Positions 13,612 through 32,358 of a stretch of 64,000 bases of DNA are shown here, in pieces (the stretch's first letter is position 1; every line of letters begins with the position of its first letter). Made by a program: the position numbers and the translations under genes. The notes under the pieces were generated by a model that was not told the DNA's origin, searched no databases, and saw nothing but the letters and a program-made list of their open reading frames with translations. Source of the stretch: a virus; IMG/VR virus record IMGVR_UViG_3300035669_000001, positions 13,901 to 77,900 of that record, one strand, 5' to 3'.

Positions 13612-13912
13612 TTCTCTCCTCAGTGTCTTGGGCCAAGGCCTCTGCGTGGGCCATCACCTGGTCGTAGCCCGACTGGGCCAGTGCGCGGATCTTCATGCCG
13701 TAGTCCCGAGGCTCCCAGGGCTTGCCCTTGAACATCAGCTCCATCAGGAAGTGGATGTCGGAGTGGGCGTTGCAGCAGATCTGGACCTTGTTCGAGGCCA
13801 CGTTCTTGCCCCCGTACCCGAGCGGGAAGACGTGATGGATCTCGTAGGAGACCTTGGACTCGTGGACGTGGCACACGAACCCGGTGTTACTCCTGGCCAC
13901 GGTGGCACTCAC
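13541..13912 (-). CDS. HNH endonuclease
   Basis: EIHHVFPLGYGG..N...CCNAHSDIH. Confidence 0.8.
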   Translation of the reverse strand: MSATVARSNTGFVCHVHESKVSYEIHHVFPLGYGGKNVASNKVQICCNAHSDIHFLMELMFKGKPWEPRDYGMKIRALAQSGYDQVMAHAEALAQDTEERNARNTRTQAGTRPQEQGVRVHSA

Positions 13913-14052: not shown

Positions 14053-16050
14053 GTGAGTATCGACCAGTCCAACTACGCCCAGATGGTGGACGTCACCCAG
14101 GAGGGTGAGGTCAAGCAGCTGCCTGTCGGCGGGATGTTCGACGAGATGGGCGGGACCGGGCTCAAGCGCTCTGCGGGGGTCATCGACGAGGAGTTCATGC
14201 CCGCCCTCCGGGGCACCAAGGGCGTCGCGGTCTTCCGGGAGATGTCGCTCAACGACTACACCGTGGGCTCGTTGCTGTTCACGATCGAGATGCTGCTGCG
14301 CCAGATCGACTGGACGGTGACCGGGGACGACACCTCACCGGAGCAGTCAGAGGCTGTGCAGTTCGTGGAGGAGTGCATGGACGACATGTCCCACTCCTGG
14401 AACGACATGATCGCCGAGATCCTCTCGATGCTCACCTACGGGTGGGCCTGGCACGAAATCGTCTACAAGAAGCGGGTAGGGCCCTGGGAGACCGACCCCA
14501 AGAAGCGCTCCAAGTTCACCGATGGCCGGATCGGGTGGCGCAAGATGCCCATCCGGGCCCAGGAGACGCTGTTCCGGTGGATCTTCGACGTCGACGGCGG
14601 CATCAAGGGGCTCGTGCAGATCCCTCCCCCGGACTACACCCAGCGCACCTTGAGCATCGAGAAGGGCCTGCTGTTCCGCACCGGGATCCACAAGGGCAAC
14701 CCCGAGGGCCGGTCAATCCTTCGGAACGCGTACCGCCCGTGGTACTTCAAGAAGCGCCTGGAGGAGTTCGAGGCGATCGGGGTCGAGCGTGATCTTGCGG
14801 GCCTTCCATTCGCCAAGATCCCCAGCCGGCTGATGGACCCGAACGCCTCCCCTGCTGAGAAGCAGATGTACGCAGCGTTCAAGAAGCTCGTGGCCAACGT
14901 CCGGCGGGACGAGCACGAAGGGGTAGTGATTCCCAGCGACGTCGACGCCGAATCCAAGGCCCCCAAGTACGACTTCCAGCTCCTCGCCTCCGGGGGCAGC
15001 CGCACCTTCGACACCAACGCGCTGATCGGCCGCTACGAGCTGGCCATCCTCTCGACCGTTCTGGCCGACTTCCTCAAGCTGGGTCACGAGGGTCAGGGCT
15101 CCTACGCCATGCACGTGGACAAGACCGGCATCTTCCGGGCTGCTCTCAACACCATAGCCACTGCCATCGCCGACGTCTTCAACCGCTACGCGATCCCGAG
15201 GCTGTTCGCGGCCAACTCCTGGAAGCTGGACAAGCTCCCCAAGATCGAGCCCTCCAACGTCGACCCGCCCAACCTGGCCGAGCTGGGCCAGTTCATGACG
15301 TCCATGGCGGGCCTGGGGATGACCTTCTTCCCCGACCCCGACCTCGAGAAGTACCTGCGTGACACCGCGCACCTCCCCGCCCTCTCAGAGGAGCAGGAGG
15401 AGATGCACCGGATGATGAGCGAGCAGGCCAACGCGATGGAGTTCATGGGGGCCAAGCAGAAGGCCGAGATGGTGGGCCAGGGGATGACCCCCGAACAGGC
15501 CCAGATGCAGTCGGAGATGCCCACCCCGGAGATGCAGGCCCAGGATCCCCAGGCCCAGGCGACCAACCAGAAGATGCAGATGGACCAGGCGGCCTCTGAG
15601 CAGAAGATGGCCCAGGAGGCACAGTCCCACTCACTGCAGCAGGCCACCCAGGCCCAGGGGCTGGAGCAGGCCACCAAGGAGACCGACCTCAAGGCCAAGC
15701 AGGGCGAGGCCGAGCTGGCGACCGAGATGAAGCGGATGCAGATGGAGCTCGACGCCATGAAGGCCAAGATGGGCCTGGAGGCAGAGGGTTCCAAGCAGAC
15801 CCTGGACGCCAAGGCCAAGGGCTCCGCGCTCGACCTCAAGGCCAAGGAGGCGAGCACCAAGGCCGACCTGGACGCCAAGAGGCGGGGCAACGTGATCGAC
15901 CTGAAGGCCAAGCAGGCCCAGGCGAAGCTGCGTCCACAGCCGGCCGCAGGAAGGTCCAAGGGACGCGGAAGGGTGAGCAAGAACGGCAATCTCGGGCCTT
16001 CCAACGGCTGGGGCTGGCCGAACGATGACAACCCGTTCCGTAGGTCCTGA
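14053..16050 (+). CDS. Portal protein with Gln/Ala/Met-rich coiled-coil C-terminal extension
   Basis: Mu gp29/DUF935-type portal features (YGWAWHEIVY, GNPEGRSILRNAYRPWYFKK, IGVERDLAGLP) and position before the head genes. Confidence 0.88.
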   Translation: MSIDQSNYAQMVDVTQEGEVKQLPVGGMFDEMGGTGLKRSAGVIDEEFMPALRGTKGVAVFREMSLNDYTVGSLLFTIEMLLRQIDWTVTGDDTSPEQSEAVQFVEECMDDMSHSWNDMIAEILSMLTYGWAWHEIVYKKRVGPWETDPKKRSKFTDGRIGWRKMPIRAQETLFRWIFDVDGGIKGLVQIPPPDYTQRTLSIEKGLLFRTGIHKGNPEGRSILRNAYRPWYFKKRLEEFEAIGVERDLAGLPFAKIPSRLMDPNASPAEKQMYAAFKKLVANVRRDEHEGVVIPSDVDAESKAPKYDFQLLASGGSRTFDTNALIGRYELAILSTVLADFLKLGHEGQGSYAMHVDKTGIFRAALNTIATAIADVFNRYAIPRLFAANSWKLDKLPKIEPSNVDPPNLAELGQFMTSMAGLGMTFFPDPDLEKYLRDTAHLPALSEEQEEMHRMMSEQANAMEFMGAKQKAEMVGQGMTPEQAQMQSEMPTPEMQAQDPQAQATNQKMQMDQAASEQKMAQEAQSHSLQQATQAQGLEQATKETDLKAKQGEAELATEMKRMQMELDAMKAKMGLEAEGSKQTLDAKAKGSALDLKAKEASTKADLDAKRRGNVIDLKAKQAQAKLRPQPAAGRSKGRGRVSKNGNLGPSNGWGWPNDDNPFRRS

Positions 16051-19000
16051 TGCCCTGGGAGCGCACCGGCAGCGGCTACAAGACCGCCAAGGGCGGCTTC
16101 GTCCGTAATCCTGGTCAGTACGAGACCCTTAGGTCCAAGGGGATGTCCAAGAGACGTGCGGCCATGATCTCCAACTCGGTGGGCAAGTCCTACATCGGCG
16201 GCAAGTTCGTCCGGGCGGTGGACCTGACCGCCGAGCAGCGCAAGGTCCTGGGCGCAGGCAAGTACATCCTTTACCGCGGCCGCAACAAGCATGTCAGCAG
16301 AGGTCTTGAGAGGTTCGGACCGAACAACCAATGGAGGCAGTCTCGAGGAGCCAGCGGCAACCGGGGCACCCACCTCAACGAGTACAGGGCAGGGTGGAGC
16401 GCTACCAAGAACGTCGTCGCAGCGCCAGGGAACATGGGTGGTGCTCGCCGGAACAAGCAGGCGTACCGCCGGCTTGAGCAGGTCAACGGGGAGACCAACA
16501 CCGCTGCCTTCACCATCCGTACCGGGTCCAAGAGCACAGGCAAGTCCCACGTCTTCTACAACCGGAAGCGGATGCAGGAGGCCGAGAGTCATAAGCCCGG
16601 CTACCTGGCTGCCGTAGCTCCACACGAGCACGCCCATGCCGCTCCCAAGAGGTCCGGCTACCGGCTCTTCCAGGTCATCCAGGACCCTGCCACGCTGGGA
16701 CGCGAGGAGGCCAGGGCGGACTTCATCGCCTCAGGTGGGAAGCCGGTCAGGGGGCTGAAACGCACGTCCTTCTACGCCCACAACGCCCTGCGGGATCGAC
16801 AGGCGTCCAAGTACAAGTACGTGAAGGACGTCGGGGGCAAGCAGGGCGAGTTCGGTGCGTCCTACATCGCGCACACCCGGATGCTGCACAACAAGATCAG
16901 CAAGCCAAAGAAGGTGTCCAAGGCGTTCGGCGGGGTCAAGCGGGTGGCAGGAGCCTTCGCCAGGAAGCCCACAGCAGAGGCCGCGACCTTCGTGGACAAC
17001 CGGGTGGCTCAGGTTGCTCCCGGGATCACCAGGGCCGCTGCACCGCCGAAGAACGCCACCCAGTCACTGGTCAGCGACACGTTGGCCCACATCAACCGGG
17101 TCAAGGCCAGCCCTCCTGCTGCTGTCCCCTTCGCCCCGCACAAGCCCAAGACCATCGGGTCACTGGGGGCCGAGTGGCATCCCAAGCCACAGGCAGCCGC
17201 TGCGTCCGGGGCTCTCAGCTTCAAGGGCCACAAGGCGCCTCCGCTGACCAAGCCCGCACCAGCGAAGGCAAAGCCTGTTCAGGCACCCCCACCCGCTGCT
17301 CCTCGGCTCTCCCGTGTTGGTGCCCAGCGGAGCAGGTCGGGGTTCCAGGGGTTCACCCGGAGGCCCAGGGTTGTTCCTGCGGCCCCCAGTGCCCCTCCCA
17401 GGGCCGCTCCTGCAGTCACCAGGCCACCTAGTGCCCAGCCGGTGAGCACACCGACCCAGGCTCCGCGTGGCAACGGCCGGCGCAACGCCGGCATTGCAGC
17501 AGCCGGTGCAGGTGCGGTAGGTCTTACCGGAGCAGCGGTCTACTCGAGGAGGAAAAAGGTGGACGGCGTATCAAAGGCGTTCTCCCTACGCGGGGTCGCC
17601 CCGCGCCGGATGGGGGTCAACGTCGGCCAGCATGCCGGTGTGAACACACCACGCAGGGCCGGTGGCTTGTCGAGCATGTTCCAGCGGGGCAGTGCGCCGA
17701 AGCGCGCCATGCAGGCAGGCTCGCGGGAGATGGGTGTCGCTGCCAGCCCTCGTCGGCTGATGGGTCCAGGTGCCGCCCCAGGTGGCGGCATCAACCCCCG
17801 CGGGACTGGACGCCCTGCCAGTGCTGTGGGCCGTCCAGGACTGGCTGCTGCTCCCTCGGTGGCCGCCGGTGGTCCTGCCGCGGCCGCACCCAAGGTGGGA
17901 GGCATCGCCCGTCCGGTCGGTTCCGGCAGCAGGCCGGCGCCGAAGACCGGCGGGATGGCCCGGCCCTACGCCCCGGTGCCCAAGCCTCCGGTGACCACTC
18001 CCAAGCTGCCAGGGGCTGCTGCAGCGCGTCCGTACGCGCCTGTCCCTGTCGCTCCGAGGACCAGCAACCGGAACCGTAACCTTGCCCTGGGAGCAGGCGC
18101 TGTGGGTGCTGGCGGGCTCGGCATGGCCGGTGGTGCTCTCGGGCAGCGCAAGGTCCGCAAGTCCTTCTCGCCCAACCAGGCACGAGACGAAAGGGGCAGG
18201 TTCATGCCCATGGTGCAGATGCTCCAGGTCAACGACTTCGAGCAGACCGAGGACAACGTCGAGAAGAAGTTCGACCGGACCGACAAGATCATCGCCGGAC
18301 TGTCAGCAGTCGGGTTGGCCGGTGCCGGGGCTGCCGCCTACAAGGGCAACAAGGAGGCCAAGCGTCTGGGTGGCACGAAGGGACTCACCACCAAGGAGAA
18401 GATCTTCGGTGTCCGGGGCAAGGTTGCCCAGTGGGCCGGTACCGAGAAGCCCAAAGGTTGGAAGCCCTCGGACCGGGTGCACAAGTCTCTGCGGGTCACA
18501 GGGGCACGTCGGCTCCCGGGGTACAAGCCACATCCTGACGACGTGGAGGAAGCGGTCGCCCTGGCACGCAAGCAGTTCCCCGGTCGCAAGACGACCAAGA
18601 AGGAGGTCCTGGAGGAGCTTCAACCCTCTGGTGGTCTGGGTGGTGTAGCAGGTAGGGGCTTCGGGGCAAGGTCGAACCGCATCTCCAAGGGCTCTCCCGA
18701 CATGGCCGACGTCCACATCGAGGGTGTGCTGCGTCCGGTCGGCAAGATGCGTCGTGCCCGGGTGGAGAAGGGCATGGTCGTGGTGGGCAAGGCCGACGAG
18801 CCCCGCAAGCCCGGCCAGTGGAACGCCAACCAGCGTGCTGGCGCTGCTGGACTGGTGAGCACGTTGGCCGGTGGTGCCATTCCCCTCGGGGTAGGGATCG
18901 GCGCTGGCAGTGCTGCGCGCAAGGGCAAGCGGTTCAAGACCGGCGGCAACGCCTTCGTCCGCACCGGCGCGGAGGGCGGCGTCGGGGGTGCTGTGGGAGC

Positions 19001-19139
19001 AGGTGCGGGTATGTTGACCCGCAACCGTATGGCTACGAAGATCGGCGCAGCTCTCGGTGGAGGTGTCGGGACCGTCCACGGTGCCAATCGGTCGATCGCC
19101 AACTCACGTCGCAAGGGATACCTGAGGAGCGGTTTCTAG
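16050..19139 (+). CDS. 1029-aa modular basic protein; putative protease-processed internal head polyprotein
   Basis: Modules separated by [VI]xK motifs. Contains HEHAH..EE, Gly-zipper segments, RDERGRF and PDMADVHI. Confidence 0.6.
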   Translation: MPWERTGSGYKTAKGGFVRNPGQYETLRSKGMSKRRAAMISNSVGKSYIGGKFVRAVDLTAEQRKVLGAGKYILYRGRNKHVSRGLERFGPNNQWRQSRGASGNRGTHLNEYRAGWSATKNVVAAPGNMGGARRNKQAYRRLEQVNGETNTAAFTIRTGSKSTGKSHVFYNRKRMQEAESHKPGYLAAVAPHEHAHAAPKRSGYRLFQVIQDPATLGREEARADFIASGGKPVRGLKRTSFYAHNALRDRQASKYKYVKDVGGKQGEFGASYIAHTRMLHNKISKPKKVSKAFGGVKRVAGAFARKPTAEAATFVDNRVAQVAPGITRAAAPPKNATQSLVSDTLAHINRVKASPPAAVPFAPHKPKTIGSLGAEWHPKPQAAAASGALSFKGHKAPPLTKPAPAKAKPVQAPPPAAPRLSRVGAQRSRSGFQGFTRRPRVVPAAPSAPPRAAPAVTRPPSAQPVSTPTQAPRGNGRRNAGIAAAGAGAVGLTGAAVYSRRKKVDGVSKAFSLRGVAPRRMGVNVGQHAGVNTPRRAGGLSSMFQRGSAPKRAMQAGSREMGVAASPRRLMGPGAAPGGGINPRGTGRPASAVGRPGLAAAPSVAAGGPAAAAPKVGGIARPVGSGSRPAPKTGGMARPYAPVPKPPVTTPKLPGAAAARPYAPVPVAPRTSNRNRNLALGAGAVGAGGLGMAGGALGQRKVRKSFSPNQARDERGRFMPMVQMLQVNDFEQTEDNVEKKFDRTDKIIAGLSAVGLAGAGAAAYKGNKEAKRLGGTKGLTTKEKIFGVRGKVAQWAGTEKPKGWKPSDRVHKSLRVTGARRLPGYKPHPDDVEEAVALARKQFPGRKTTKKEVLEELQPSGGLGGVAGRGFGARSNRISKGSPDMADVHIEGVLRPVGKMRRARVEKGMVVVGKADEPRKPGQWNANQRAGAAGLVSTLAGGAIPLGVGIGAGSAARKGKRFKTGGNAFVRTGAEGGVGGAVGAGAGMLTRNRMATKIGAALGGGVGTVHGANRSIANSRRKGYLRSGF

Positions 19140-19142
19140 GCC

Positions 19143-21221
19143 ATGACCCAGCCCAAGGTCGTGATCCACGGGAAGTTCGAGGACGGAGACCTCCCCGCCC
19201 AGGGGACGCTGACGTTCTCCGACTTCGCCTTCTCCACCGACACGGTGGAGAACGTCATCCACGTCCCCCACACGGAGAAGGCCTACCTCGACCAGAACGG
19301 TGAGTTCTGGGTGGAGCTGCCCCTGAACGTGGGCATCAACTCCACCCCCACGCCCCGCCGGTACTCCGTGGACATCGCCGTCTCGGGGTTCGCCGACTCC
19401 TGGGAGTTCGTGCTCGACCCGACTTCCCTGCAGGTCGAGCTCTCCTCCCTGATGCCGGTCAACGCCCCGCCGGTGATCCCCTACCAGTACGTCTCCTCGC
19501 TGATGGGCATGACGGGCCCGATCACCTACTCCGACTTCATTGAGCGCGTCCCACAGCTGGCCCCGGACGCCGGCAAGAGCGCCTACGAGCTCTGGGTGGA
19601 CCAGGGCAACACCGGGTCGTTCTCCGACTTCCTGGACGACATCTCAGGCCCTCCTGGGATCATGGGGCCGCGCGGTGCCCAGGGAGACATAGGCACCGAG
19701 GGCCCACGGGGGCTGAGAGGCCCGGCTGGACCCCAGGGCAGGCCCTTCCACCTCGACGCCATCGTGATGACCGAGTCGGCTCTCAGTGGCGGTGGAGGGG
19801 TGCTCACCGACGACGAGCAGACCGTCCTGATGCCCAAGTGGAGCATCGTCGCCGTCTTGGAGAACCAGTCCTTCTACCACTTCGACGGGGTCGAGTGGCG
19901 CAACCTCGGCTCCTACAAGGGCGCGCAGGGGGAGCCGGGCAACACCCCGACCGCGGCCGACCTCGGGCTCGGGACCTTCGTGGGCCTCACCCCGGCCACG
20001 ATGCCCATCCCCGGCTCGGTGCAGATCGCCCTGAACACCCTGGCGGCCAACGTGGGCCAGGTGCAGAGTGTCAACGGCCAGGTCGGTGAGGTGGAGATCG
20101 GCGCGGACGACGTGGGTCTCGGCAACGTCGCCAACCTGGCTCCCTCCCAGATGCCCGTCTCGGCCGACACCCAGGCGGCCCTGAACGCCCTGAGCGTCCT
20201 GCTGGGGGGCAAGGAGCCCCTGCTGCCCTCGGGCGGCACGGTGACCACCTTCCTGCGCGGGGACAAGTCCTGGCGCACCCTGATCCCCGCTGACGTGGGT
20301 CTGGGGCAGGTGCGGAACTTCGCCTCGATGAACGTGCTGGGCTCGGTGAGCCTGGACGCCGTGACCTCCACCGGCACCTACCACCAGCCCTTTGACACGG
20401 TCGCCTCCACCGACCTGGGCTACCCGGTGAACAGGGCGGGCTTCCTGGTGGTGGTGGCCAACAACGACGGCACCAAGATGGTCGCCCAGAGCTACACCAC
20501 CTACGGCTACGCGGGGTCGGAGTCCCGGGTCTATCTGCGCGCGATCTACGCCACCAACTCCTGGGGCCCCTGGCGGCAGGTCTACACCTCATCGGGTGCT
20601 GACCCCTTCACGGCGCAGTCCTACCGGGGCACCTCGGGTGGAGGGGTGTCAGCCTCCGGTGTGGTGCATGCGCGGTCCTTCGTGGCCAGTGCGGGCATCT
20701 CGGCTTTTGACCTGGACTCCGCAGCAGGGGTGACGGTGTCCTACCCGCTGGCCCCGGTGGTCGGCACCCTGCCGGACGCCTTCCCACAGGGGTACTCGGT
20801 CTGGCGCCTGCAGGCCGGTGCAGCCGGCAGCCCCACCGGCTACCCGGTTCTCTCGGGCACACTGGAGAGCTACCGCAACACCTTCTACCCCAGGCAGCGC
20901 CTCACAGCAGTCGACGGCACGGTCTACACCAGGACCTTCTCGGGAACCTGGTCGCCCTGGAAGGTCAGCGACAACCTCCAGTTCCTGGCCGGTCAGGTGG
21001 CCATCCTGCCCTCTGCCATCGACGTCCCCACCTCGGTGGTGGTCAACCTTCCGGCTGGGAGGTTCAGCGTCCCGCCTGTTACCGTCGTCTCGGCCAACTC
21101 CTCGGTGCCCGACCGGATCCACGTCAGCACCCAGCTCGCCACGGTGGACTCCTTCACCGTCACCATGACCCGGTCGTCCGTGGCCAACACCTTCATCAAC
21201 TGGCTGGCCGTAGGAGTCTGA
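19143..21221 (+). CDS. Fibre / receptor-binding protein (short collagen, pyocin-knob-like domains, C-terminal H-lectin/gp53-like domain)
   Basis: Gly-X-Y stretch, VQSVNGQVG and DVGLGNV repeats, YxR...WGPW knob motifs twice, and ends INWLAVG. Confidence 0.75.
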   Translation: MTQPKVVIHGKFEDGDLPAQGTLTFSDFAFSTDTVENVIHVPHTEKAYLDQNGEFWVELPLNVGINSTPTPRRYSVDIAVSGFADSWEFVLDPTSLQVELSSLMPVNAPPVIPYQYVSSLMGMTGPITYSDFIERVPQLAPDAGKSAYELWVDQGNTGSFSDFLDDISGPPGIMGPRGAQGDIGTEGPRGLRGPAGPQGRPFHLDAIVMTESALSGGGGVLTDDEQTVLMPKWSIVAVLENQSFYHFDGVEWRNLGSYKGAQGEPGNTPTAADLGLGTFVGLTPATMPIPGSVQIALNTLAANVGQVQSVNGQVGEVEIGADDVGLGNVANLAPSQMPVSADTQAALNALSVLLGGKEPLLPSGGTVTTFLRGDKSWRTLIPADVGLGQVRNFASMNVLGSVSLDAVTSTGTYHQPFDTVASTDLGYPVNRAGFLVVVANNDGTKMVAQSYTTYGYAGSESRVYLRAIYATNSWGPWRQVYTSSGADPFTAQSYRGTSGGGVSASGVVHARSFVASAGISAFDLDSAAGVTVSYPLAPVVGTLPDAFPQGYSVWRLQAGAAGSPTGYPVLSGTLESYRNTFYPRQRLTAVDGTVYTRTFSGTWSPWKVSDNLQFLAGQVAILPSAIDVPTSVVVNLPAGRFSVPPVTVVSANSSVPDRIHVSTQLATVDSFTVTMTRSSVANTFINWLAVGV

Positions 21222-22654: not shown

Positions 22655-25438
22655 ATGGCGTTCAACGAACACTGCGCTCAGCGCGTCTACGACATCGTCT
22701 CCAAGATGGACGACGACGAGGCCCAGATGTTCGGCCTCCTGGTGGCCCACGACGTGTGGTCGCGTGACGTCCGGGCCAACGAGCGGTACCTCCGCCGGCT
22801 GAAGGACTCCTACGATGCCGAGGTCACGGACACGGTTGCCAAGGCCCTCCTCGAGCACCTGGACGAGGGCGGCGACCCTGAGGCTGCTGTGGCGGTCGCA
22901 GCGGCTGTGGCAGTCGCGAAGGACGACGACGACTGGTGGAAGTTCCAGGAGCGCGACAAGCAGGGTCGCTTCGGCCGGATGACCGGTGCCCAGTACCGGG
23001 CCAACCTGAAGGCGATCAAGGCCAGTGCCAAGCTGACCCAGGCTGAGCGCAAGGCGCAGCTGAAGGACGCCAGGTCCGGACGGGCCAACTACCTCAGCGG
23101 CTCGGGGCTCTACGTCGACGTCAAGGGAGGCGGTCAGGGAGTCGTCCGAGGTACCCAGAGGTTCGAGCAGGACTGGAACCGCCCACCGGACGAGGAGTCC
23201 AACGCCACCACCACCTTCAACCGGCTGAAGACCGGCGGCCAGACGGTGCAGGCCATCGGCGCCGCCACGGGCAGCCAGAAGCTAGCCATCGCGGGTGCGG
23301 TGGGCAACTACGCCGGTCAGTTCGGCCCGGAGGCCGAGAAGGTCGTCGGGCCCTCCATCCGGCGGACCGCCTACCGCTACCGGGGGACAGAGCGTCGTCC
23401 CGACGCTGCCTACGTGCAGATCGCCCAGGCCAACCTCAACGAGGTCAAGCGTGAGGGGCAGCCGGTCACTGCGGAGCAGAAAGCCTTCGCGGCCGAGACC
23501 GCGGCGATCCGGTACTTCCTCGGTGACGACCCGACGGCTGGCAAGCGGGGCGGTGGCTCACGCATCCCCAGTGCGAAGCTCTCCGGGCTGCACCGCGCCT
23601 CGGGCCGGATCACCCCCTCCGAGGGCATCATGATCGACGCCAACGGCAACATCGCCCACCAGGCGGTCGGCTACGGCGAGGACCACTACCTGCCCTTCAA
23701 CCTCAAGAACCTCTCCGCGCTCAAGGGCGGCTCCTACATCCGGACGCGCGAGAGCGGCGGTCTGACCACCGAGGACATCTACACCGGTCTGGTGGCCGGT
23801 GCGCGCTCGATGACGGTGGTGAGCAACTCCGGGGTCTTCACAGTGGACTACGCCGACGACCTGCGCGGAGGCAGGCGCTACAACGACAAGGCCCGGCAGA
23901 TGGTCAGCCGCTACGGCCAGACCCTGGACGCGATCCAGTCCGAGAAGGTGGCCAACCCGGAGCGCGGCCTGTCCTCGCGGGAGAGGGCGAAGATCCAGGT
24001 CGAGACCGAGCAGAAGATCAACGAGGACCCGATCCTGCGGTCCTTCCCCGACGACCAGAAGAAGTCCTGGGTCAAGGAGGCGATCCAGCGCGCCGAGTCC
24101 ACCACCCAGCTGTCCGAGGACGAGATCGCCGAGATCGACCGGAAGTCCAAGGAGCAGGGCAAGACCAAGTCCGACCAGGACATCTTGTTCCGTCAGCTGT
24201 ACGACGAGAAGATCGACGCGGTCAGCCGCCGGCACTACCGGTTGGACGGTGAGGGTTACGCCACCTCGATGGAGGCGCTGCGCGAGCAGTTCCCCTACTA
24301 CATCTCCAACATCAGCTACCGCACGGTCAAGAGCAACGACTCGCTGGCTCCCGACAGGTTCAACCGGGCCACCGACAAGGGCTACGTCAAGCCGCGGTTC
24401 AACCGGCCCGAGGGAGCCCAGTCGGGCTACTACGACGACACCATCACCGGCAGGGGCAAGACCAGCGCCGACCGGACGGACTACCAGAACTGGCGGGTCC
24501 GGGCCAAGCGCGGGGGAGATGTTGCGGCTGTTGCGGATGTTGCGGCAACCACGGGTGCCCCCAACAGCATGAAGGCCACCCAGGACAAGTTCGCGGCCGA
24601 GGCCAAGGAGAAGGCCGGCGACCCGTTGATGAACAACGCCATCATCTCCGACGCCGACTCCCTCAAGGCCACCCACGAGGCCTCCCGCGAGGCCAAGGCC
24701 GGTGGCATCGGGATGCAGTACGAGGGTGTGCACGAGTGGTTCAACGCCGACGACTCCGAGCGGCACGCCATCATGGCCGACCCGGCCCGCAGGGCGAAGC
24801 TCAAGGCCGACATCACCAAGGTGAAGCGGGACTACGCCAAGGAGTTCGGTTCCTCCGCGCCGCAGAACATCGAGTTTGCCGAGAAGAAGGCGAAGACCGC
24901 CATGATGAGCGACGAGGTCCTCGCGGCCGAGAAGGCCCCGGACACCCCGCTGCGGATCACCGACGAGCAGTTCGAGCAGGCGGCTCAGACCGACCACATC
25001 CGCAACCTCACCCAGCAGGAGGACCACGACCTGCAGGCGATCAGCCAGGACCTGCGTACCCAGCGCGCCCTCACGGCGAAGGCGGGCAACGACAAGGAGA
25101 CCACGTCGCTCACCCAGCAGATCACCGCGCTGGAGTACGCCCGCGCCCTCAAGGCCCGCACCACCGAGGTGCCGACCGACGTCTACGCCGAGATCGCCCA
25201 GCGCACCAGCCCGACCAAGGGCACGCTCACCCCGGTGCCGAAGGTCTCGTCGAGGGCCACGCTCACGTCCACCCAGGCCACTGAGCAGGTCCGCCGGCTG
25301 CACAACCAGCACCGGCTCGGGCTGATCGACGCCAACGAGTTCGAGCGGAGCGTCAGAGAGGTCATCGAGGACTCCGACATGGACGATAACGAGAAGCAGG
25401 TTGAGTACCGCCGTGCTACCGGGAACATCATGCGGTGA
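22655..25438 (+). CDS. 927-aa putative internal head protein with a degenerate JAB/MPN-like domain
   Basis: N-terminal VxK sites, RDKQGRF, and EGIMIDANG...LKGGSYIRTRESGGLTTEDI. Confidence 0.55.
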   Translation: MAFNEHCAQRVYDIVSKMDDDEAQMFGLLVAHDVWSRDVRANERYLRRLKDSYDAEVTDTVAKALLEHLDEGGDPEAAVAVAAAVAVAKDDDDWWKFQERDKQGRFGRMTGAQYRANLKAIKASAKLTQAERKAQLKDARSGRANYLSGSGLYVDVKGGGQGVVRGTQRFEQDWNRPPDEESNATTTFNRLKTGGQTVQAIGAATGSQKLAIAGAVGNYAGQFGPEAEKVVGPSIRRTAYRYRGTERRPDAAYVQIAQANLNEVKREGQPVTAEQKAFAAETAAIRYFLGDDPTAGKRGGGSRIPSAKLSGLHRASGRITPSEGIMIDANGNIAHQAVGYGEDHYLPFNLKNLSALKGGSYIRTRESGGLTTEDIYTGLVAGARSMTVVSNSGVFTVDYADDLRGGRRYNDKARQMVSRYGQTLDAIQSEKVANPERGLSSRERAKIQVETEQKINEDPILRSFPDDQKKSWVKEAIQRAESTTQLSEDEIAEIDRKSKEQGKTKSDQDILFRQLYDEKIDAVSRRHYRLDGEGYATSMEALREQFPYYISNISYRTVKSNDSLAPDRFNRATDKGYVKPRFNRPEGAQSGYYDDTITGRGKTSADRTDYQNWRVRAKRGGDVAAVADVAATTGAPNSMKATQDKFAAEAKEKAGDPLMNNAIISDADSLKATHEASREAKAGGIGMQYEGVHEWFNADDSERHAIMADPARRAKLKADITKVKRDYAKEFGSSAPQNIEFAEKKAKTAMMSDEVLAAEKAPDTPLRITDEQFEQAAQTDHIRNLTQQEDHDLQAISQDLRTQRALTAKAGNDKETTSLTQQITALEYARALKARTTEVPTDVYAEIAQRTSPTKGTLTPVPKVSSRATLTSTQATEQVRRLHNQHRLGLIDANEFERSVREVIEDSDMDDNEKQVEYRRATGNIMR

Positions 25439-27606
25439 GCGTCCCCGCCTTTGACCAGGAGCCACTGACGCCCCAGGAGGCCTACCAGGTCGACTACGTC
25501 ATCCGAGGGGCACAGGGGGGCTCCACGCTGGCTGTGGCGGCCGCACTGGGCGGGGCCTTCCTGGTGTACCGGGCGTACATGCGGAGACGCCTGCGGGAGC
25601 GCATGGGCTCGCTGGAGGGCACCACGCCCGAGGAGGTGATGCGCGAGACCAACCAGGTGTTCTCCACCTTCATGCCCACCTGGACGGCGATGGCCGCACC
25701 TGCTCTCTTGCAGGGCTACCTGTCCGGGGTGGCCGAGACGGAGTTCGGGCTGGACGAGGCGTTCCTGTCCGAGCTGGCCGATAACTACGCCTACTCCCTC
25801 GGGATGCACATCAACCAGGTCTCCGGCGACGCTCTCGTGCGCGGGTACGCGGCCCAGGTGAACCGGAAGGTCCCGGCCAAGGTCGCCCTGGGCAACGTGA
25901 TCGACGCGGTCGGGGTGACCAACTCCCACATGCGGACTCTGAACGTGATGCTCTCGGGCAAGGAGGACGCCAAGCTCAGCGAGACCCTGATCCCCTCGGT
26001 CAAGAAGGCCAGGGCACAGCGCCAGGTGATGGCCGCCCTCAACCAGCGCGCCGAGGTGATCGGCGACTCGGAGTCCTGGAACGCCAAGCAGCAGGGCAAG
26101 CAGATCGCCTGGTTGTACGCCCAGCGTCAGGGGTTCATCCCCTCCACCGCTACCCGGGAGTGGATCACCGCCGACGACGAGCGGGTCTGCCCGTCCTGCG
26201 GCCCGCTGCACAAGGTGGAGCTGCCGGTCGCCGAGCAGTTCGACATCCCGAACGTCGGCAAGTTCTGGTCCCCGCCCGTGCACCCGAGGTGCCGCTGCGA
26301 CGTGCGTCTCAAGGTCGGCCTGGGGCAGATCATCGCCAACAACGTGGTCTTCGGGCAGTTCGGCCGGCAGTGGCTCAAGCCCGACGACGTCGAGGAGGTC
26401 GGAAAGTCCGACAACCCCCACGACAACGACTGGGACACCCAGCCGAGACAGAAGACCGGCAGGTTCGGCGCGCGTCCTGAGGTTCGTTTCAAGGAGGCTG
26501 ACGTCGACCTCGATGCGGCCATCGCCCAGGCCACCCAGGCGGCGCAGATCGAGGACGCGGTACCCAAGGGTCCGATCCTCGGGCGAACGGTGCTGGGAAA
26601 GCCAGGGGTGATAGGCGAGACGACACTGGGCAAGCCTCCGGTGCTCGGCCAGGTCGTCCTCGGCAAGCCTCCTGTCCTCGGCGGGTCCAAGCTCGAGTCG
26701 CAGGGTCTGCAGGCCCAGCGGATGAAGTCTCACGCCCTGCAGGGCCGCAAGCTGGACAAGAGCAAGCTGGACCATGCCAGGCGGATGGCCCGGGCCGAGA
26801 TGGACGGCCGGATCATGGCACTGCCCGGGGACATCTCGGGCACGGTGGTGGACGACGAGGTCAAGGCACCCGAACCCGACTACTCCGACCTGGTGCCCAC
26901 TCCGGAACCCATGTTCGCCGTTGCCGATCCGCGTTGGGTTATTCGTGGACCAAACACCGACTCGCGTTCAATCAACGCTTCCAACGGTATGTACCGGCTG
27001 GACGGAGCCGAGGTGATAGGCGGGGTGGACAAGCTCCAGGCCAAGATCGAGGAGCTCGAGGCCGAAGCTGACGACGAGTACCTGGAGTACCTCTTTGACA
27101 GTAATGAGGCGAGCTACTTCGACAACGAAACCGGTTGGGAGAGTCCCGTCCCCGAGCACGTCTACGCCGCAGCTATGGAGTGGGTTCGGGCCCAGGAACA
27201 GACAAACATGGCGGTGGCGGACTTCACGGTCGAGCTTGATGCGTACGGGCCGCTGTGGACCAAGGACGGCACGCCGGTGGAGGGAGGGTACAACCATCCT
27301 GACTACGAGGCCCTCTACGAGAACGGGGATATTGAGTTTGACCTGGTTGACAGCCAGTACGTGCAGATCTCTGACATCGCGGACAAACTGAGTCTTTGGG
27401 AGCACGTCAGCGATACTCAGCCCCGGATCATCCAGCTGGACAAGGTCAGGGGCAACGACGTCGACTACGACCCTGACGGTGCTCCTTATGCCCAGGTGAG
27501 CGATAGCTACAAGATGGACGGGATGTCCACGGTCACCATCAACGGGAGGCACTATGTGACCGCCCGACTCGAACCGGCCTGGCTGGACGAAGGCGGGAGA
27601 ATGTAG
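25435..27606 (+). CDS. MuF-like (SPP1 gp7 family) minor head protein with long C-terminal extension
   Basis: REWITADDERVCPSCGPLH...PPVHPRCRC. Confidence 0.85.
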   Translation: MSVPAFDQEPLTPQEAYQVDYVIRGAQGGSTLAVAAALGGAFLVYRAYMRRRLRERMGSLEGTTPEEVMRETNQVFSTFMPTWTAMAAPALLQGYLSGVAETEFGLDEAFLSELADNYAYSLGMHINQVSGDALVRGYAAQVNRKVPAKVALGNVIDAVGVTNSHMRTLNVMLSGKEDAKLSETLIPSVKKARAQRQVMAALNQRAEVIGDSESWNAKQQGKQIAWLYAQRQGFIPSTATREWITADDERVCPSCGPLHKVELPVAEQFDIPNVGKFWSPPVHPRCRCDVRLKVGLGQIIANNVVFGQFGRQWLKPDDVEEVGKSDNPHDNDWDTQPRQKTGRFGARPEVRFKEADVDLDAAIAQATQAAQIEDAVPKGPILGRTVLGKPGVIGETTLGKPPVLGQVVLGKPPVLGGSKLESQGLQAQRMKSHALQGRKLDKSKLDHARRMARAEMDGRIMALPGDISGTVVDDEVKAPEPDYSDLVPTPEPMFAVADPRWVIRGPNTDSRSINASNGMYRLDGAEVIGGVDKLQAKIEELEAEADDEYLEYLFDSNEASYFDNETGWESPVPEHVYAAAMEWVRAQEQTNMAVADFTVELDAYGPLWTKDGTPVEGGYNHPDYEALYENGDIEFDLVDSQYVQISDIADKLSLWEHVSDTQPRIIQLDKVRGNDVDYDPDGAPYAQVSDSYKMDGMSTVTINGRHYVTARLEPAWLDEGGRM

Positions 27607-27608
27607 CC

Positions 27609-28460
27609 ATGGACGTACTGGAGGCTCTGCGCGCGCACGGTGAGGCTGGGGCGGCTGTCGTGGACCTGCTCTACGGCGAGGGTGCGGAGGAGGTTGTCAA
27701 GGCTCTCAGTGAGGACCGCAAGCGGAAGATCGCCACCGCCTCCAACGTGGTCGGGATCGGCGCTGGGCTGGCTGCCATCCCCGGTGCCACCCGCGACTTC
27801 CGGAACGCCGCGAAGACTGCCAGGGGTGCCAGTGACAAACCGGTCGGCGTCCTGAAGCCGGTGGGCAAGATCCGGGGCAACATCCGCGGTGGTCTCAAGG
27901 CCACCAAGAACTTCCTGGGCAAGCCGAAGACCGCGCTGGCACTGGCCGGCGGCGGTCTGGCCCTGCAGGCGGGGAACGTCGGCGGGGACTTCGTGACCAA
28001 CCAGGTCCTCCGCGCCGACCAGAAGAAGTCGGGCGTCTCCAAGGGGCTGACCGACATCGAGTGGACCGGCGAGTTCTCCAAGATGGACACCGACAAGCGC
28101 CAGGTGTTCGGGTGGGCCTCGGTCACCGCGGTCGACGGCGTCCCGGTGACCGACCTCCAGGAGGACGAGATCGACCTCGAGGAGATCGAGAAGGCCGCCT
28201 ACTCCTACGTGGCCAAGTCCCGGGTCGGCGGCAACATGCACAAGAAGACCATCGACGGCTCCCCGGTGCACGTCTCCGACATGATCGAGTCCTTCGTGGT
28301 CACCCCGGAGAAGAAGCAGACGCTGCACCTGGGCAACGACACCCCGGAAGGGTGGTGGGTCGGCTTCCAGGTCAACGACGACGAGACCTGGGACGCGGCC
28401 AAGAACGGCGAGCTGGTGGGCTTCTCGATCCACGGAACGGGAAAGAGGCGTGACGGCTGA
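27609..28460 (+). CDS. XkdF-like prohead (capsid maturation) serine protease with N-terminal extension
   Basis: QVFGWASV..DLQED..EEIEKAAY..NMH..IESF..GWWVG..W...KNGELVGFSIHG. Confidence 0.85.
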   Translation: MDVLEALRAHGEAGAAVVDLLYGEGAEEVVKALSEDRKRKIATASNVVGIGAGLAAIPGATRDFRNAAKTARGASDKPVGVLKPVGKIRGNIRGGLKATKNFLGKPKTALALAGGGLALQAGNVGGDFVTNQVLRADQKKSGVSKGLTDIEWTGEFSKMDTDKRQVFGWASVTAVDGVPVTDLQEDEIDLEEIEKAAYSYVAKSRVGGNMHKKTIDGSPVHVSDMIESFVVTPEKKQTLHLGNDTPEGWWVGFQVNDDETWDAAKNGELVGFSIHGTGKRRDG

Positions 28461-29689
28461 TGCCCATGGTGAAGCTGGTGTTCGTCCCGGAGACGACGAA
28501 CAAGCCGACCAGGCAGTCCCACAACATCGTGGCGCTGCCCAAGATCGAGCCTCTGCAGGGCAAGGGGAAGCCCCAGTTCGGGCGCAACGGCAAGCCGGTC
28601 AGCAACGTCTCCGATGCGCTGTTCGGGCGCGGGGGAGGCGTCCACACCGACGTGATCCGCAAGGCCCTGAGCAGGGAGCAGAAGGTGGGCGTGGGAGCCG
28701 CCGGCGTGGTAGGTGCCGGGCTGGCAGCAGGTTCGGTCGGACGAGCGGTCAGATACGGCGGCCAGGCGCGCAACGCCTTCCGGGTGGCCCAGGGTTTTAG
28801 TCATGGCCCCGCCCACCAGGCCGGGGCCACCCTCAAGCAGTACGGCGCACATCGCAGGAAGATGGCTCTCCGCAACGTGGGTGCGGCGACAGTGGCGGGC
28901 GGGCTCCTGGCTGGCGGTACGGCCGCCACGATGTCCAGTGCCAACGCAGCGAACCAGCGCCGCACCGGTGTGGCCAAGATGAGTGACGCGGAGCTTCGCC
29001 ACCGCAAGCGCGTCCAGGCCGGGATCAGCATCGGCACCTCCACCCTCGGTCTCTCCGCGCTGGGGTCAAAGGCCGGGGCCGGTGTGCTCCGCAAGCTCAA
29101 CAAGGCCCCGGGTGCGGCCCATCGGCTGGACAAGGCAACCACCAACCTGCTCACCAGCGGTGCAGGACTGGGTGGGGTCGGTGGGTTCAACTTCGCCTCG
29201 GTGCAGCGCCAGGAGGCCAGGAAGCGGACGCCGGTGGTAAAGGCTTACGACCCCGAGCGCAACCGGGAACGCAGGGCCAGGCAGGAGGCCAAGGTGGCAG
29301 GAGTCGTCGGAGGTGCAGCGTCCGGCGGTGCGCTAGCGGCTGGAGGTCTCGCAGCACGACGTGGGTTTCAACGCCGGGACGAGACCACCCGGATAGGTAG
29401 TCCGGTGGAGCTCGAACAGGAGGTTCTCCCCGGTGGCGGCAAGACCCGACTGGACCCGAGGGGGCGAGTTCACCACGGGCCTGCTCGGAAGTTCCGGACG
29501 GCGAACTTCGGGGAGAAGATGTCCTCGGCGACCAAGGTCAAAGGGCTCAAGGCCAGCCAGGTGAGGGCGGGCAAGGTCGGTGTCGGACTGGCCGCGCTGG
29601 GCGTCGGCGGGCTGGTTGCGTCGGACCGGATCGCCTCCTACTCCCGGGGGAAGGGGCGGAAGTACTCACCCCGGTTCAAGCGGGACTGA
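28460..29689 (+). CDS. 409-aa cationic Gly-zipper protein; putative polyprotein
   Basis: Three Gly/Ala hydrophobic plus Arg/Lys modules delimited by IRK|A, VAK|M and VVK|A. Confidence 0.55.
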   Translation: MPMVKLVFVPETTNKPTRQSHNIVALPKIEPLQGKGKPQFGRNGKPVSNVSDALFGRGGGVHTDVIRKALSREQKVGVGAAGVVGAGLAAGSVGRAVRYGGQARNAFRVAQGFSHGPAHQAGATLKQYGAHRRKMALRNVGAATVAGGLLAGGTAATMSSANAANQRRTGVAKMSDAELRHRKRVQAGISIGTSTLGLSALGSKAGAGVLRKLNKAPGAAHRLDKATTNLLTSGAGLGGVGGFNFASVQRQEARKRTPVVKAYDPERNRERRARQEAKVAGVVGGAASGGALAAGGLAARRGFQRRDETTRIGSPVELEQEVLPGGGKTRLDPRGRVHHGPARKFRTANFGEKMSSATKVKGLKASQVRAGKVGVGLAALGVGGLVASDRIASYSRGKGRKYSPRFKRD

Positions 29690-29727
29690 ACGGGTTGCAG
29701 GCTAAGACAGAATTGTGGGTGAGGAAC

Positions 29728-30906
29728 ATGCCAAAGCTCAGTGATCTGAACATCGACGAGGTCAGCCTCGTGCGCAAGGGCGCCAACCAACATGCCCGGG
29801 TGGCAATCGCGAAGTCAGCAGGAGGAGAAGTGGACGAGGAGTACTTCGACCAGGAAGGAAACGCGGTCGACGTCGAGGAGCTCGAGCATGGCGACATCGT
29901 CTTCGACTCTGACGGTGAGGCCTACCAGTACGACGAGCCTGGTGACGATGACGACGAGGTCGAGAAGGCCCTGTACGTCGGTGGCCGCGAGGTCACCAGC
30001 CGGGTCGGACGTGCCGCTGGCAAGGCGTACATCGGAGCCGGCCGCAAGGCCAAGTCCGCCAACAAGTTCCGGATCCAGACAGGTGCGATTGCCGGGCAGG
30101 CAGCCCGCAGGGGCGCCAAGCGTGTATCCAGCGCTGCCGGTACGGGTGCCGGGTTCGTCGCCGGCAACGCCAAGCGTGGTGCAGGGGCAGTGGCGGGAGC
30201 CGCACGTAGCACCGGCACGGCAGCCGGGAACGCGGGCAACGCCATGGGCGGGGCGATCCGCGGGGCCGCGGCGCAGACCGAGGGCTTCCTGCGCACCGAG
30301 AACAACGCCTTCAACACCCGCGGCCGGATCGGCGCCCTCGGTGCCGGTGGTGTGCTCGCCGGTGCCGGTGGCGGCTACGCGGCAGGCAGCAACGGCCGGG
30401 TCCGCAAGAGCGCGTCCGACGACCTCCGGGAGGAGCTCTCCAAGGCACTCACCGACGACGACCGGGACGAGGTGATCGCGAAGGCCTTCGGGTACGTCGA
30501 ACAGGCCGAGCAGGTCGCCCAGGAGGCCTGGGAGATCGCCGAGGAGGAGCGGGAGAACCGCCGGGCTGCGGAGTTCTACGAGGTGGCCAAGTCCTACGAC
30601 ATGGTCCCGGTGGATACCGAGGACCTCGCGATCGCCATGATGCACATGGCCGACCTGCTGCCCGAGGAGGACGTGCAGGTCATCGCCAAGGCCCTGGGCT
30701 TTGCGGCCGACGTGGCCGACGAGCTCTACGAGGAGCAGGGCAACGTGGGCGGTGGCGACAACTCCGACGTGATGGAGCAGCTGCAGACGTTCGCGCGCAA
30801 CCGGGTCGCCAAGTCCGGTGAGGGCTCAGCCGAGCAGTACCTGGTCGATGCCCTCAACCATGACCCAGCGGTGTACGACCAGTACCTCGCGGACAACAGC
30901 CGCTGA
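29728..30906 (+). CDS. Scaffolding protein
   Basis: GAGGA RBS; N-terminal DEVSLVRKGAN; acidic helical body with repeated xxK|S/A; C-terminal DPAVYDQY. Lies just before the capsid genes. Confidence 0.75.
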   Translation: MPKLSDLNIDEVSLVRKGANQHARVAIAKSAGGEVDEEYFDQEGNAVDVEELEHGDIVFDSDGEAYQYDEPGDDDDEVEKALYVGGREVTSRVGRAAGKAYIGAGRKAKSANKFRIQTGAIAGQAARRGAKRVSSAAGTGAGFVAGNAKRGAGAVAGAARSTGTAAGNAGNAMGGAIRGAAAQTEGFLRTENNAFNTRGRIGALGAGGVLAGAGGGYAAGSNGRVRKSASDDLREELSKALTDDDRDEVIAKAFGYVEQAEQVAQEAWEIAEEERENRRAAEFYEVAKSYDMVPVDTEDLAIAMMHMADLLPEEDVQVIAKALGFAADVADELYEEQGNVGGGDNSDVMEQLQTFARNRVAKSGEGSAEQYLVDALNHDPAVYDQYLADNSR

Positions 30907-30929: not shown

Positions 30930-31349
30930 ATGGCTTACGACGAAGCGTGGCGGGCGGTCACTTTCAACGCTGACTCCTCGCTCGCCGGGTACACGGGTGT
31001 TCCTGGCGTGCCAGGATCAGTTAGCCCGAACTACGGCAAGGCGCTCTACAGGTTTGTGAAGGTCGTGGGCAAGCGCCTGGTGGGTCGAACCACCGGTGTT
31101 GCCGACCGCAACAAGACCGTGGGCATCTGTCAGAGCAAACCACAGGTGACCGGTGAGGCCGCTACCATCGCGATCCGGGGCGAGTCCCTGGTGTTCGCGG
31201 GCGGTGTCATCGCGGCCGGTGACATGGTCACCTCAGACGCCACTGGACGAGCTGTGACCACTGCGGTGGTGGCGGACCATCTTGGCCTCGCTGTCGAAGA
31301 CGCATCCGGAGCCGACGTGCTCACCACCGTGCTGCTTCGGTGCAACTGA
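30930..31349 (+). CDS. Capsid decoration/cement protein (DUF2190-like)
   Basis: AGGVIAAGDMVTSDATGRAV motif; precedes the MCP gene. Confidence 0.75.
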   Translation: MAYDEAWRAVTFNADSSLAGYTGVPGVPGSVSPNYGKALYRFVKVVGKRLVGRTTGVADRNKTVGICQSKPQVTGEAATIAIRGESLVFAGGVIAAGDMVTSDATGRAVTTAVVADHLGLAVEDASGADVLTTVLLRCN

Positions 31350-31362
31350 GAGGAGATGACCA

Positions 31363-32358
31363 ATGCCTCGTCCTGACATGGCAGATGTCCATATCAACAC
31401 CCCGCTGACCAACGTCAGCATCGCCTACATCCAGAACGCCTCCAACTTCATCGCCACCAAGGTCTTTCCCAAGCTCCCGGTGGACAAGAGGTCGGACCTG
31501 TACTGGAAGTACTCCAAGAGCGACTGGCGGCGTACCGACGTCCAGCGTCGTGCTCCCAGCACCGAGTCTCCGGGCACGGGCTGGAACACCTCGATGGACC
31601 AGTACTTCTGCCACGTCTACGCAGTGCACAAGGACATCGACGACCAGCTCCGGGCGAACGCGGACTCGGTCTTCCGGCTGGACAGCGATGCCACTGCCTT
31701 CGTGACGAACCAGATGCTCATCAAGCGCGACCTGGACTGGACCGCCTCGTTCTTCAAGACCGGGGTATGGGGCACGGACAAGGCGCTGCTGGCGACCGAT
31801 GCCAACCCGGAGAACATCCGCTGGGACCGGGCCACCTCGGACCCGATCGGTCTGTTCGGCACGCTGCAGCTCGCCTTCATCCAGCAGACGGGCTTCAAGG
31901 CCAACACCGCCGTGTGCGGTGCCAACGTCCTGAAGGCGCTGAAGAACCACCCGGCCATCATCGACCGGATCAAGTACACCCAGAAGGGCATCGTGACGAC
32001 CGACCTGATCGCCACCCTGCTCGACGTCGACCGGGTGTTCGCGGCCTACGCCACCTACTCCACCGGACCCACCATCCCTGATGCGGTGGCCCAGGACGCA
32101 GCGGCGACCAACACCTTCATCGCGGACCCCAACTCGGTGCTGTTGTGCTACTCCCCGGCCAGCCCGTCTCTGATGAGCCCGGCCGCTGGGTACACCTTCA
32201 CCTGGAAGGGCTACCTCGGAGGGAACGCGCAGGGGATCCGGATGACCCGGTTCCGCATGCCGGCCATCCGGTCGGACCGCATCGAGGCCGAGATGACCTA
32301 CGACATGCACGTGATCTCCCCGGACTGCGGTGTGTTCCTGACGAGTGTTGTCGGCTGA
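31363..32358 (+). CDS. Major capsid protein
   Basis: LTNVSIAY..FIA..VFP..V N-terminal signature of lambda gpE-like MCPs, 331 aa, strong RBS. Confidence 0.9.
   Translation: MPRPDMADVHINTPLTNVSIAYIQNASNFIATKVFPKLPVDKRSDLYWKYSKSDWRRTDVQRRAPSTESPGTGWNTSMDQYFCHVYAVHKDIDDQLRANADSVFRLDSDATAFVTNQMLIKRDLDWTASFFKTGVWGTDKALLATDANPENIRWDRATSDPIGLFGTLQLAFIQQTGFKANTAVCGANVLKALKNHPAIIDRIKYTQKGIVTTDLIATLLDVDRVFAAYATYSTGPTIPDAVAQDAAATNTFIADPNSVLLCYSPASPSLMSPAAGYTFTWKGYLGGNAQGIRMTRFRMPAIRSDRIEAEMTYDMHVISPDCGVFLTSVVG

Follow-up and report, generated by a model that had tools for sequence, protein, structure and literature searches.

The DNA analysed here, referred to throughout as the window, is a 64,000-nucleotide stretch (positions 13,901 to 77,900) of IMG/VR virus record IMGVR_UViG_3300035669_000001; it makes up most of a 77.9-kb viral contig and has a G+C content of 65%. 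It contains a head-gene module in which a Mu-type portal gene (14053-16050) is followed by the + strand gene for gp16050, a 1029-residue head-internal protein (16050-19139) encoded between the portal gene and a gene for a collagen-like or tail-fibre-like protein (19143-21221). Further along the module are genes for a 927-residue protein (22655-25438), a MuF-like protein (25435-27606), an XkdF-like (Peptidase_S78_2) prohead protease (27609-28460, + strand; PF14550, E = 4e-19, 69 bits), gp28460 (28460-29689), an acidic scaffold protein (29695-30906), a cement or decoration protein (30930-31349), and the 331-residue major capsid protein (MCP; Phage_cap_E, 31363-32358, + strand). The MCP assignment is based on matches to phrog_1005 (E = 1.6e-82, residues 5-330), PF03864 (26.4 bits against a cut-off of 22.9) and PDB entry 3bjq (E = 3e-11). 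The subject of this report is a ten-residue segment of gp16050, here called the tag, which copies the N-terminus of the MCP and lies directly after a predicted prohead protease cleavage site.

The relevant part of gp16050 reads ...NRISK880↓GSPDMADVHIEG, where the arrow marks predicted cleavage, and the MCP begins MPRPDMADVHINTP. Residues P883-I890 of gp16050 (PDMADVHI, 18696-18719) and residues 4-11 of the MCP (31372-31395) are identical at all eight positions. A first-pass annotation of this DNA, made from the letters alone, had pointed to an exact copy of the MCP N-terminus within the 1029-residue protein, and re-reading of the sequence bore this out. The tag (G881-SPDMADVHI-890, 18690..18719, + strand) is immediately preceded, on its 5' side, by the predicted prohead protease cleavage triplet I878-S879-K880 (18681..18689, + strand), which is of the form [V/I]-x-K↓, and is followed by a spacer and basic tail (E891...RPVGK899↓MRRARVEK907↓, 18720..18770, + strand) that runs to the next predicted cut sites. 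The sequence mimicked is the MCP N-terminal motif M1-N12 (MPRPDMADVHIN, 31363..31398, + strand), a segment for which a family consensus is given below.

The match between tag and MCP is far beyond chance. PDMADVHI is the sole 8-mer common to different proteins in the + strand proteome of the window (∼19.8 k amino acids), and shuffled versions of that proteome contain 0.14-0.27 shared 8-mers. The number of occurrences expected elsewhere from residue frequencies is 4e-7 for PDMADVHI itself, 1.2e-5 in the window for any 8-mer that lies within MCP residues 1-20, and 8e-4 for any MCP 8-mer. When scored against the MCP core, the tag is the top-scoring site of the whole window (z = 8.9).

At the DNA level, the two 24-base stretches are identical at 20/24 positions and differ at four third positions (CCC/CCT, GCC/GCA, GAC/GAT, and CAC/CAT), and the DNA flanking the two copies shows no similarity. 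The four silent differences, which the first-pass annotation had taken to indicate protein-level selection rather than recent DNA duplication, are present, but they do not carry an argument about age or selection. The G+C content at third codon positions (GC3) of the window MCP gene is 0.50 in codons 2-13 versus 0.93 in the rest of the gene, and the four differing codons all end in A or T. The start of the MCP gene (31363-31401) looks like a site of strong start-proximal selection for A/T-ending codons, and because such selection could produce the four differences quickly, they cannot date the duplication. Family mean GC3 values for the MCP start and the rest of the gene are 0.71 versus 0.87. 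Since the codon bias explains all four differences, a fairly recent 24-base conversion is possible for the window itself. This, together with the 20/24 identical bases, is what would be seen if the tag had no function in the window and the identity were a remnant of conversion or duplication over a short stretch, involving the tag and the 5' end of the MCP gene, tolerated rather than selected. The unrelated flanking DNA argues against such a relic, as do the results from related phages given below, and we regard it as very improbable.

The window phage has no close cultured relative; the closest cultured phage by MCP is 43% identical, and a megablast search of gp16050 against cultured phages gave no match. 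IMG/VR contains 133 relatives with MCP identities of up to 75%, of which the 80 with identities of 59-75% were kept for comparison, and every tag-bearing relative is a metagenomic contig. Every position of each locus was scored against the MCP core of the same phage. Regular expressions requiring D-x-H-[VI] miss most of the tags (...SDLAT), and these are recovered by scoring against the phage's own MCP core. The tag was found in ∼30 related metagenomic lineages, directly after [V/I]-x-K. Its usual carrier is the XkdF-like prohead protease, in an N-terminal extension that is predicted to be disordered. At ∼25 loci, no site anywhere in the locus matches the phage's own MCP core better than the peptide immediately following [V/I]-x-K in this protease extension (z = 5.5-7.3), and 4-6 of the 8 core residues in the protease tags are identical to those of the phage's own MCP. 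Twelve further database proteases, for 11 of which PF14550 is listed, contain K↓[GSA][ESND]P[DGS]x[SAV]D[VLTS][HN][VA], followed by WRNGRGHTKGRGRR. Scanning with the protease alignment yielded two short loci only from metagenomes and no locus from genome contigs.

The family motif is K↓x-[SGNE]-P-[DTS]-x-[SA]-D-[VL]-H-[VAI], and the ISK↓GSPDMADVHI of the window is a typical example. Among the 28 tabulated tags, Lys at -1, Val or Ile at -3, and Pro at +3 are each present in 28/28, and in the protease alignment the Lys preceding the tag reaches at least 90% conservation. The placement of the gp16050 peptide after a putative cut site, proposed initially from the single sequence, accords with this, as ISK880 fits the triplet conserved in all 28. 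The tag starts at residue 881 of 1029 in gp16050 and 40-130 residues into the proteases, and a basic cluster follows the tag in every carrier.

The MCPs of the family have the N-terminal consensus MP[NS]P[TSA]Q[SA]DLH[VI]N.PLTNVS (80 related loci), and P4, D8, H10, and N12 are invariant in 41 sequences. The window MCP departs from this consensus at T5D, Q6M, S7A, L9V, and V11I, and at all five positions it contains the residue found in the tag, which for its part belongs to the common PD.ADVH type. No other phage gives as strong a case of co-variation as the window, with five MCP changes, each to the tag residue. Evidently, the tag sequence is able to serve as an MCP N-terminus, whether it came to do so by selection or by short conversion. 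Even if the window copy arose by conversion, a viable MCP with five tag residues at conserved positions implies functional interchangeability of the two segments. In a codon test covering 25 phages, identical tag and MCP residues share the same codon in 69/137 cases versus 76 expected from codon usage. Because shared codons are not in excess, the likeness appears to be kept at the protein level, with no family-wide signal of gene conversion. The conservation of motif, Lys site, and register across ∼30 lineages, with no excess of shared codons, is difficult to reconcile with a functionless relic, and the proposal that the peptide is an MCP N-terminus mimic under protein-level selection is upheld by this family-wide recurrence and by the codon test.

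Tags resemble the MCP of their own phage at 5.39 of 9 positions versus 4.86 in shuffled pairings (p = 0.00025, or p = 0.004 with the window left out), although the lineages are related and these shuffle p-values are optimistic. Paired counts for the residue just ahead of the invariant Asp, which is Ser or Ala, are S/S 16, A/A 6, S/A 5, and A/S 1. Database proteases P0010-P0020, which come without their paired MCPs, lay outside the co-variation test. The expectation that the peptide should recur in homologues and track their MCP N-termini is thus borne out by the best-scoring site at each locus and, to a modest degree, by co-variation.

An MCP tree of 31 rows places a protease-borne tag in all clades but one, consistent with a single change. 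The clade without a protease tag (11 rows, support 89/86) contains the window. Its proteases have kept the helical N-terminus and the Lys site, which is then followed by ALSEDRKRK or a similar sequence; in the window, the protease site V29-V30-K31 (27693..27701, + strand) is followed by ALSEDRKRK and no tag. In two members of the clade (G003 and L116), the tag is located 35-38 residues from the end of a protein that is homologous to gp16050 residues 47-229 and whose domain has a conserved HExxH...KRS.YR motif. In a third (G005), it is located 35 residues from the end of an unrelated 347-residue protein. Because different head proteins carry the tag inside the window's clade, the tag appears to be portable, and on this tree the window is derived, its tag residing in another head protein instead of the protease.

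Cleavage after [V/I]-x-K is predicted because the triplet recurs, the Lys before the tag is conserved in the proteases at the level given above, and the scaffold alignment shows no variation at K15, K28, and K138. The MCPs of the family start with MPNP... or MNP.... Methionine aminopeptidase removes Met before Pro and leaves it before Asn, so the conserved Pro should come to stand at position 3 in both MCP forms once mature. Cutting behind the conserved Lys would likewise place Pro at position 3 in every tag, in the same register as the mature MCP, and the earlier suggestion that cleavage would give the motif the N-terminal register of the MCP therefore extends to the whole set. The residue at +1 of the tag is most commonly Met (14/28), with Ala, Ser, Gly, and Ile also occurring and Pro never, an absence that is expected if the Lys bond must be cleaved. 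Internal translation initiation was considered in place of cleavage and rejected as a general rule, given the Ala, Ser, Gly, and Ile residues found besides Met at this position. The next predicted cut sites after the gp16050 tag are K899 (VGKM at 897) and K907 (VEKG at 905). Anchoring of the polyprotein by the tag, as originally envisaged, would require an uncleaved or partly cleaved precursor, because full cutting leaves a 19-27-residue peptide.

The motif always adjoins a predicted cleavage site, which would also be the case if it were a shared processing signal, recognized by a phage or host protease or modifying enzyme in the MCP N-terminal region as well as in other head proteins. The precedent is phage 80alpha, in which the host protease Prp cuts an N-terminal motif common to the capsid protein, the scaffold, and ribosomal protein L27 (PMC5744158). 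The 80alpha leader consists of 13-14 residues that are removed at F↓A, and it mimics the ribosomal protein (PMC5744158). As in 80alpha, the MCP and another head protein share a short sequence linked to proteolysis, and in relatives the motif is found on non-homologous proteins. Unlike the 80alpha leader, the tag would be retained or exposed, would presumably be cut by the phage XkdF-like protease, and mimics the MCP itself; it is internal in its carriers, is not followed by F↓A, and has a conserved cut-site residue upstream. A possible point in favor of a processing signal is the conserved V-x-K followed by QSDL at MCP residues 40-46. The segment at MCP residues 40-47 (31480-31503) reads as a conserved V-x-K and then (Q/R)-S-D-L-Y-W, a second QSDL after a cut-site-like triplet. 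However, the conserved Lys lies upstream of the motif in the carriers, whereas the MCP has nothing upstream, so the feature common to both is the new N-terminus and not cutting inside or downstream of the motif. Other predicted [V/I]-x-K sites are without the motif, which argues against a general preference on the prime side of the cut, and the tag shows neither an F↓A-type site nor any visible likeness to L27. The AlphaFold2 (AF2) model of the MCP has a core of helix and sheet and a spine helix at residues 106-130, in keeping with an HK97-like fold; it is uninformative on the position of the N-terminus because residues 1-105 have predicted local distance difference test (pLDDT) values below 50. 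The distance from MCP residue 1 to the spine helix, ∼105 residues, is close to that in mature HK97 gp5, which has roughly 96 residues before its spine helix, and this further weakens the case. A shared processing signal is, in our estimation, improbable.

The AF2 model of a tag-bearing protease precursor from a related phage (248 residues; L045:6485-7228) has an N-terminal three-helix bundle at residues 1-40 (pLDDT 84-91), a disordered segment at residues 43-115 (pLDDT <50) that contains the Lys site and the tag, and the protease domain thereafter. The evidence for disorder around the tag comes from this protease model. If the model is correct, the tag resides in a disordered linker, which is the usual setting of short linear motifs that bind in trans. 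The ∼40-residue three-helix bundle of the protease precursors ends just before the first Lys site, and the modeled bundle is probably a pro-domain.

The location of the tag in these precursors raises the possibility that its partner is the protease. An exosite on the protease might bind the MCP N-terminus for procapsid docking or for sensing of assembly, in which case a tag in the protease's own extension could act as an intramolecular pseudo-ligand (an autoinhibitor) or as a cleaved activating peptide resembling adenovirus pVIc, and the carriers in the window's clade might be recruited as substrates or cofactors. The protease is the ancestral and by far the commonest carrier, the tag follows the first cut site after the helical bundle, and the tag-bearing product would be a small basic peptide. 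There are also precedents: the HK97 MCP delta domain recruits the protease, and the adenovirus pVIc peptide activates its protease. What these would have in common with the tag is packaging or activation of a protease through a short peptide contact with a capsid segment or a precursor-cleaved peptide. Sequences, folds, and topology differ, and neither peptide copies a capsid N-terminus. The L045 model leaves the tag disordered and undocked from the protease domain, which argues weakly against an exosite. The proteases of the window's clade are without a tag and some phages have no tag at all, and we consider a protease ligand unlikely, though less so than a processing signal.

The best-supported reading, to which we give an even chance, is that the tag is a docking or targeting tag that uses the binding site of the MCP N-terminus. 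Under this proposal, the prohead protease would cut after K880 and expose an N-terminus of the form x-x-P-x-x-A-D-V-H in the register of the mature MCP, where MPNP-type proteins should lose and MNP-type proteins should keep their Met, with Pro at position 3 in both. The exposed tag would then fill a site in the procapsid interior that is normally taken by the MCP N-terminus. Candidate sites are the scaffold C-terminus, as in P22 and 80alpha, a pocket on the inner surface of a neighboring MCP, vacant pockets around the portal, and the protease itself. Docking would address the attached basic peptide or cargo to the head or retain it there, and the docked product may be the 19-27-residue basic peptide only. 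Alternatively, the tag might already act in the uncleaved precursor.

Contacts of this kind between scaffold and coat N-arm have been described in other phages. In P22, the scaffold C-terminus binds the coat N-arm through the gp8 helix-turn-helix and gp5 residues D14/E15/E18 (PMC9965877), and in 80alpha the scaffold C-terminus, a helix-and-hook, binds the coat N-arm (PMC5644958). In JBD30, residues 2-14 of the MCP N-terminus are repositioned next to the portal (PMC11445458). The scaffold is likewise a separate protein in the phages analysed here, where its C-terminal motif and the N-terminus of the MCP are both strongly conserved; contact between the two is a candidate here. The scaffold C-terminal motif of the window (N-H-D-P-A-V-Y-D-Q-Y-L..., 30856..30903, + strand) corresponds to the consensus F..NP.AYD.YL, in which P156 and Y159 are invariant and F152, N155, D160, and Y162 are at least 90% conserved. 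By analogy, we infer only that the scaffold C-terminus is a candidate receptor for the MCP N-terminus and the tag. The window scaffold has Leu where at least 90% of the sequences have Phe, and Asp-Pro in place of Asn-Pro, deviations that may relate to its unusual MCP N-terminus. A predicted complex of MCP residues 14-331 and the C-terminal 168 residues of the scaffold with gp16050 residues 881-930 gave a score of 0.00; controls were not run, and the result counts neither way.

Several observations weigh against docking. The family-wide pattern has good support, and docking is what we infer from it; the receptors named above are candidates. The evidence for cleavage after [V/I]-x-K consists of motif recurrence and conservation, and our literature search turned up no data on cleavage by proteases of the XkdF type. 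Cutting at every predicted site would leave the tag on a 19-27-residue basic peptide that is unable to anchor a 1029-residue protein. A free N-terminus would arise only once the protease is active, after assembly, and retention therefore fits better than recruitment. Many protease tags keep only their first eight residues (NPTQSDL) and have lost H-V, and the co-variation between tag and MCP is modest. No clear tag was seen in the cultured MCP relatives KPP23, Kovu, and ValentiniPuff when these were checked. In three lineages, G001, G002, and G026, scanning of the full portal-to-MCP region revealed none either, and the tag is therefore dispensable.

A broader form of the docking proposal, which we put forward tentatively and rate below docking itself, is that a portable code of ∼10 residues, unmasked at maturation, lets any head-internal protein or peptide occupy the sites of the MCP N-terminus, either on the scaffold C-terminus or in N-arm pockets, for example those vacant around the portal. 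Over evolution, such a code would have passed from one head protein to another, the protease among them, and the MCP N-terminus of the window would have been drawn to identity with the tag.

Parts of this scheme are already known in other phages: capsid targeting peptides in T4, shared N-terminal leaders in 80alpha, and contacts between scaffold and coat N-arm. The capsid targeting sequence (CTS) of the T4 proteins IPI-III and Alt is a peptide of ∼10 residues at the extreme N-terminus of the precursor, which is cut at its C-terminal side (LxE↓) and binds the scaffolding core; it addresses cargo into the procapsid and has no resemblance to the MCP. The tag is like the CTS in its length of ∼10 residues, in its portability between unrelated head-internal proteins, and in its position next to a prohead protease site. 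It differs in being internal, with the conserved Lys and the predicted cut on its N-terminal side, so that the motif stays on the product, and in copying the MCP N-terminus. We came across no published motif in our literature search that combines a copy of the MCP N-terminus with exposure by a cut on the N-terminal side and with movement between the protease and other head proteins, and no cargo protein imitating a coat N-arm to use the scaffold contact turned up.

To our knowledge, the means by which heads take in counted numbers of proteins besides coat and scaffold are known in few model phages, including the T4 CTS and the scaffold-dependent ejection proteins of P22. If the tag does dock at sites of the MCP N-terminus, it would be a different and very economical solution to packaging, as the capsid site already exists and no dedicated receptor would be needed. 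It would also point to a binding partner of the strongly conserved MCP N-terminus, would explain how, in the window phage, a near-invariant MCP segment came to change along with a distant gene, and could provide a natural, short tag with which to encapsidate cargo in nanocages of the HK97 fold.

gp16050 consists of a DUF7218 N-terminus (PF23855, residues 18-47), an HExxH domain, low-complexity segments rich in Pro/Ala and Gly/Ala, and a C-terminal Gly-rich module; no family match other than DUF7218 was obtained, PF14550 included. Residues 1-42 and 47-229 match two separate open reading frames (ORFs) in G001, and residues 911-1028 are ∼40% identical to the C-terminus of a small separate Gly/Ala-rich ORF in another relative (L008:6017-6688). 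From the comparison of window positions 16050-19139 with L082:6495-7073, L082:2757-4280, and L008:6017-6688, gp16050 appears to have arisen by fusion of three genes that relatives carry separately, encoding DUF7218, an HExxH protein with tag and basic tail, and a small Gly-rich protein. The HExxH domain is metalloprotease-like, with the pattern H-E-x-A-H...K-R-S-x-Y-R...E-E-x-R-A-[DE], and is encoded at 16188-16739 in the window (gp16050 residues ∼47-230). It is also present at L082:3003-3482, L084:5041-5643, and L098:2453-2806, in a head-internal protein adjoining the portal gene. This part of gp16050 has no Pfam or PHROGs match.

The first-pass annotation had also suggested that GVHTD, located before a Lys site in gp28460, might be a weaker copy of the tag. 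This candidate was rejected, since GVHTD precedes the Lys site, the wrong side for a tag, and does not have the xxPxx[SA]D[LV]H pattern. It appears from the sequences to belong to a separate motif, F-G-x-(D/H)-H-G...V-x-K, which was noticed by eye just before predicted cut sites in the window (28610-28663 in gp28460, ...ALFGRGGGVHTDVIRK) and at L008:6017-6688 and L076:686-1036.

Among the cultured relatives, the XkdF-like domain of the Arthrobacter phage Kovu (L106:706-1881) and the Microbacterium phage ValentiniPuff (L107:721-1911) forms the C-terminal part of a ∼390-residue protein with a long, unrelated N-terminal region in both; the Kovu gene is annotated as 'RNA ligase'. The Kovu MuF-like protein (L099:13294) contains DPDAIDSIL, which resembles the MCP start MPEHIDSLL, has the second-best score of its locus, and is not preceded by Lys; going by the sequence, this could be either a distant counterpart of the tag or a chance likeness. 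Finally, two copies of the head module lie ∼68 kb apart on each of two single contigs, L021/L026 (105,652 bases) and L022/L024 (135,953 bases), which are probably concatemer assemblies of a ∼68-kb genome.

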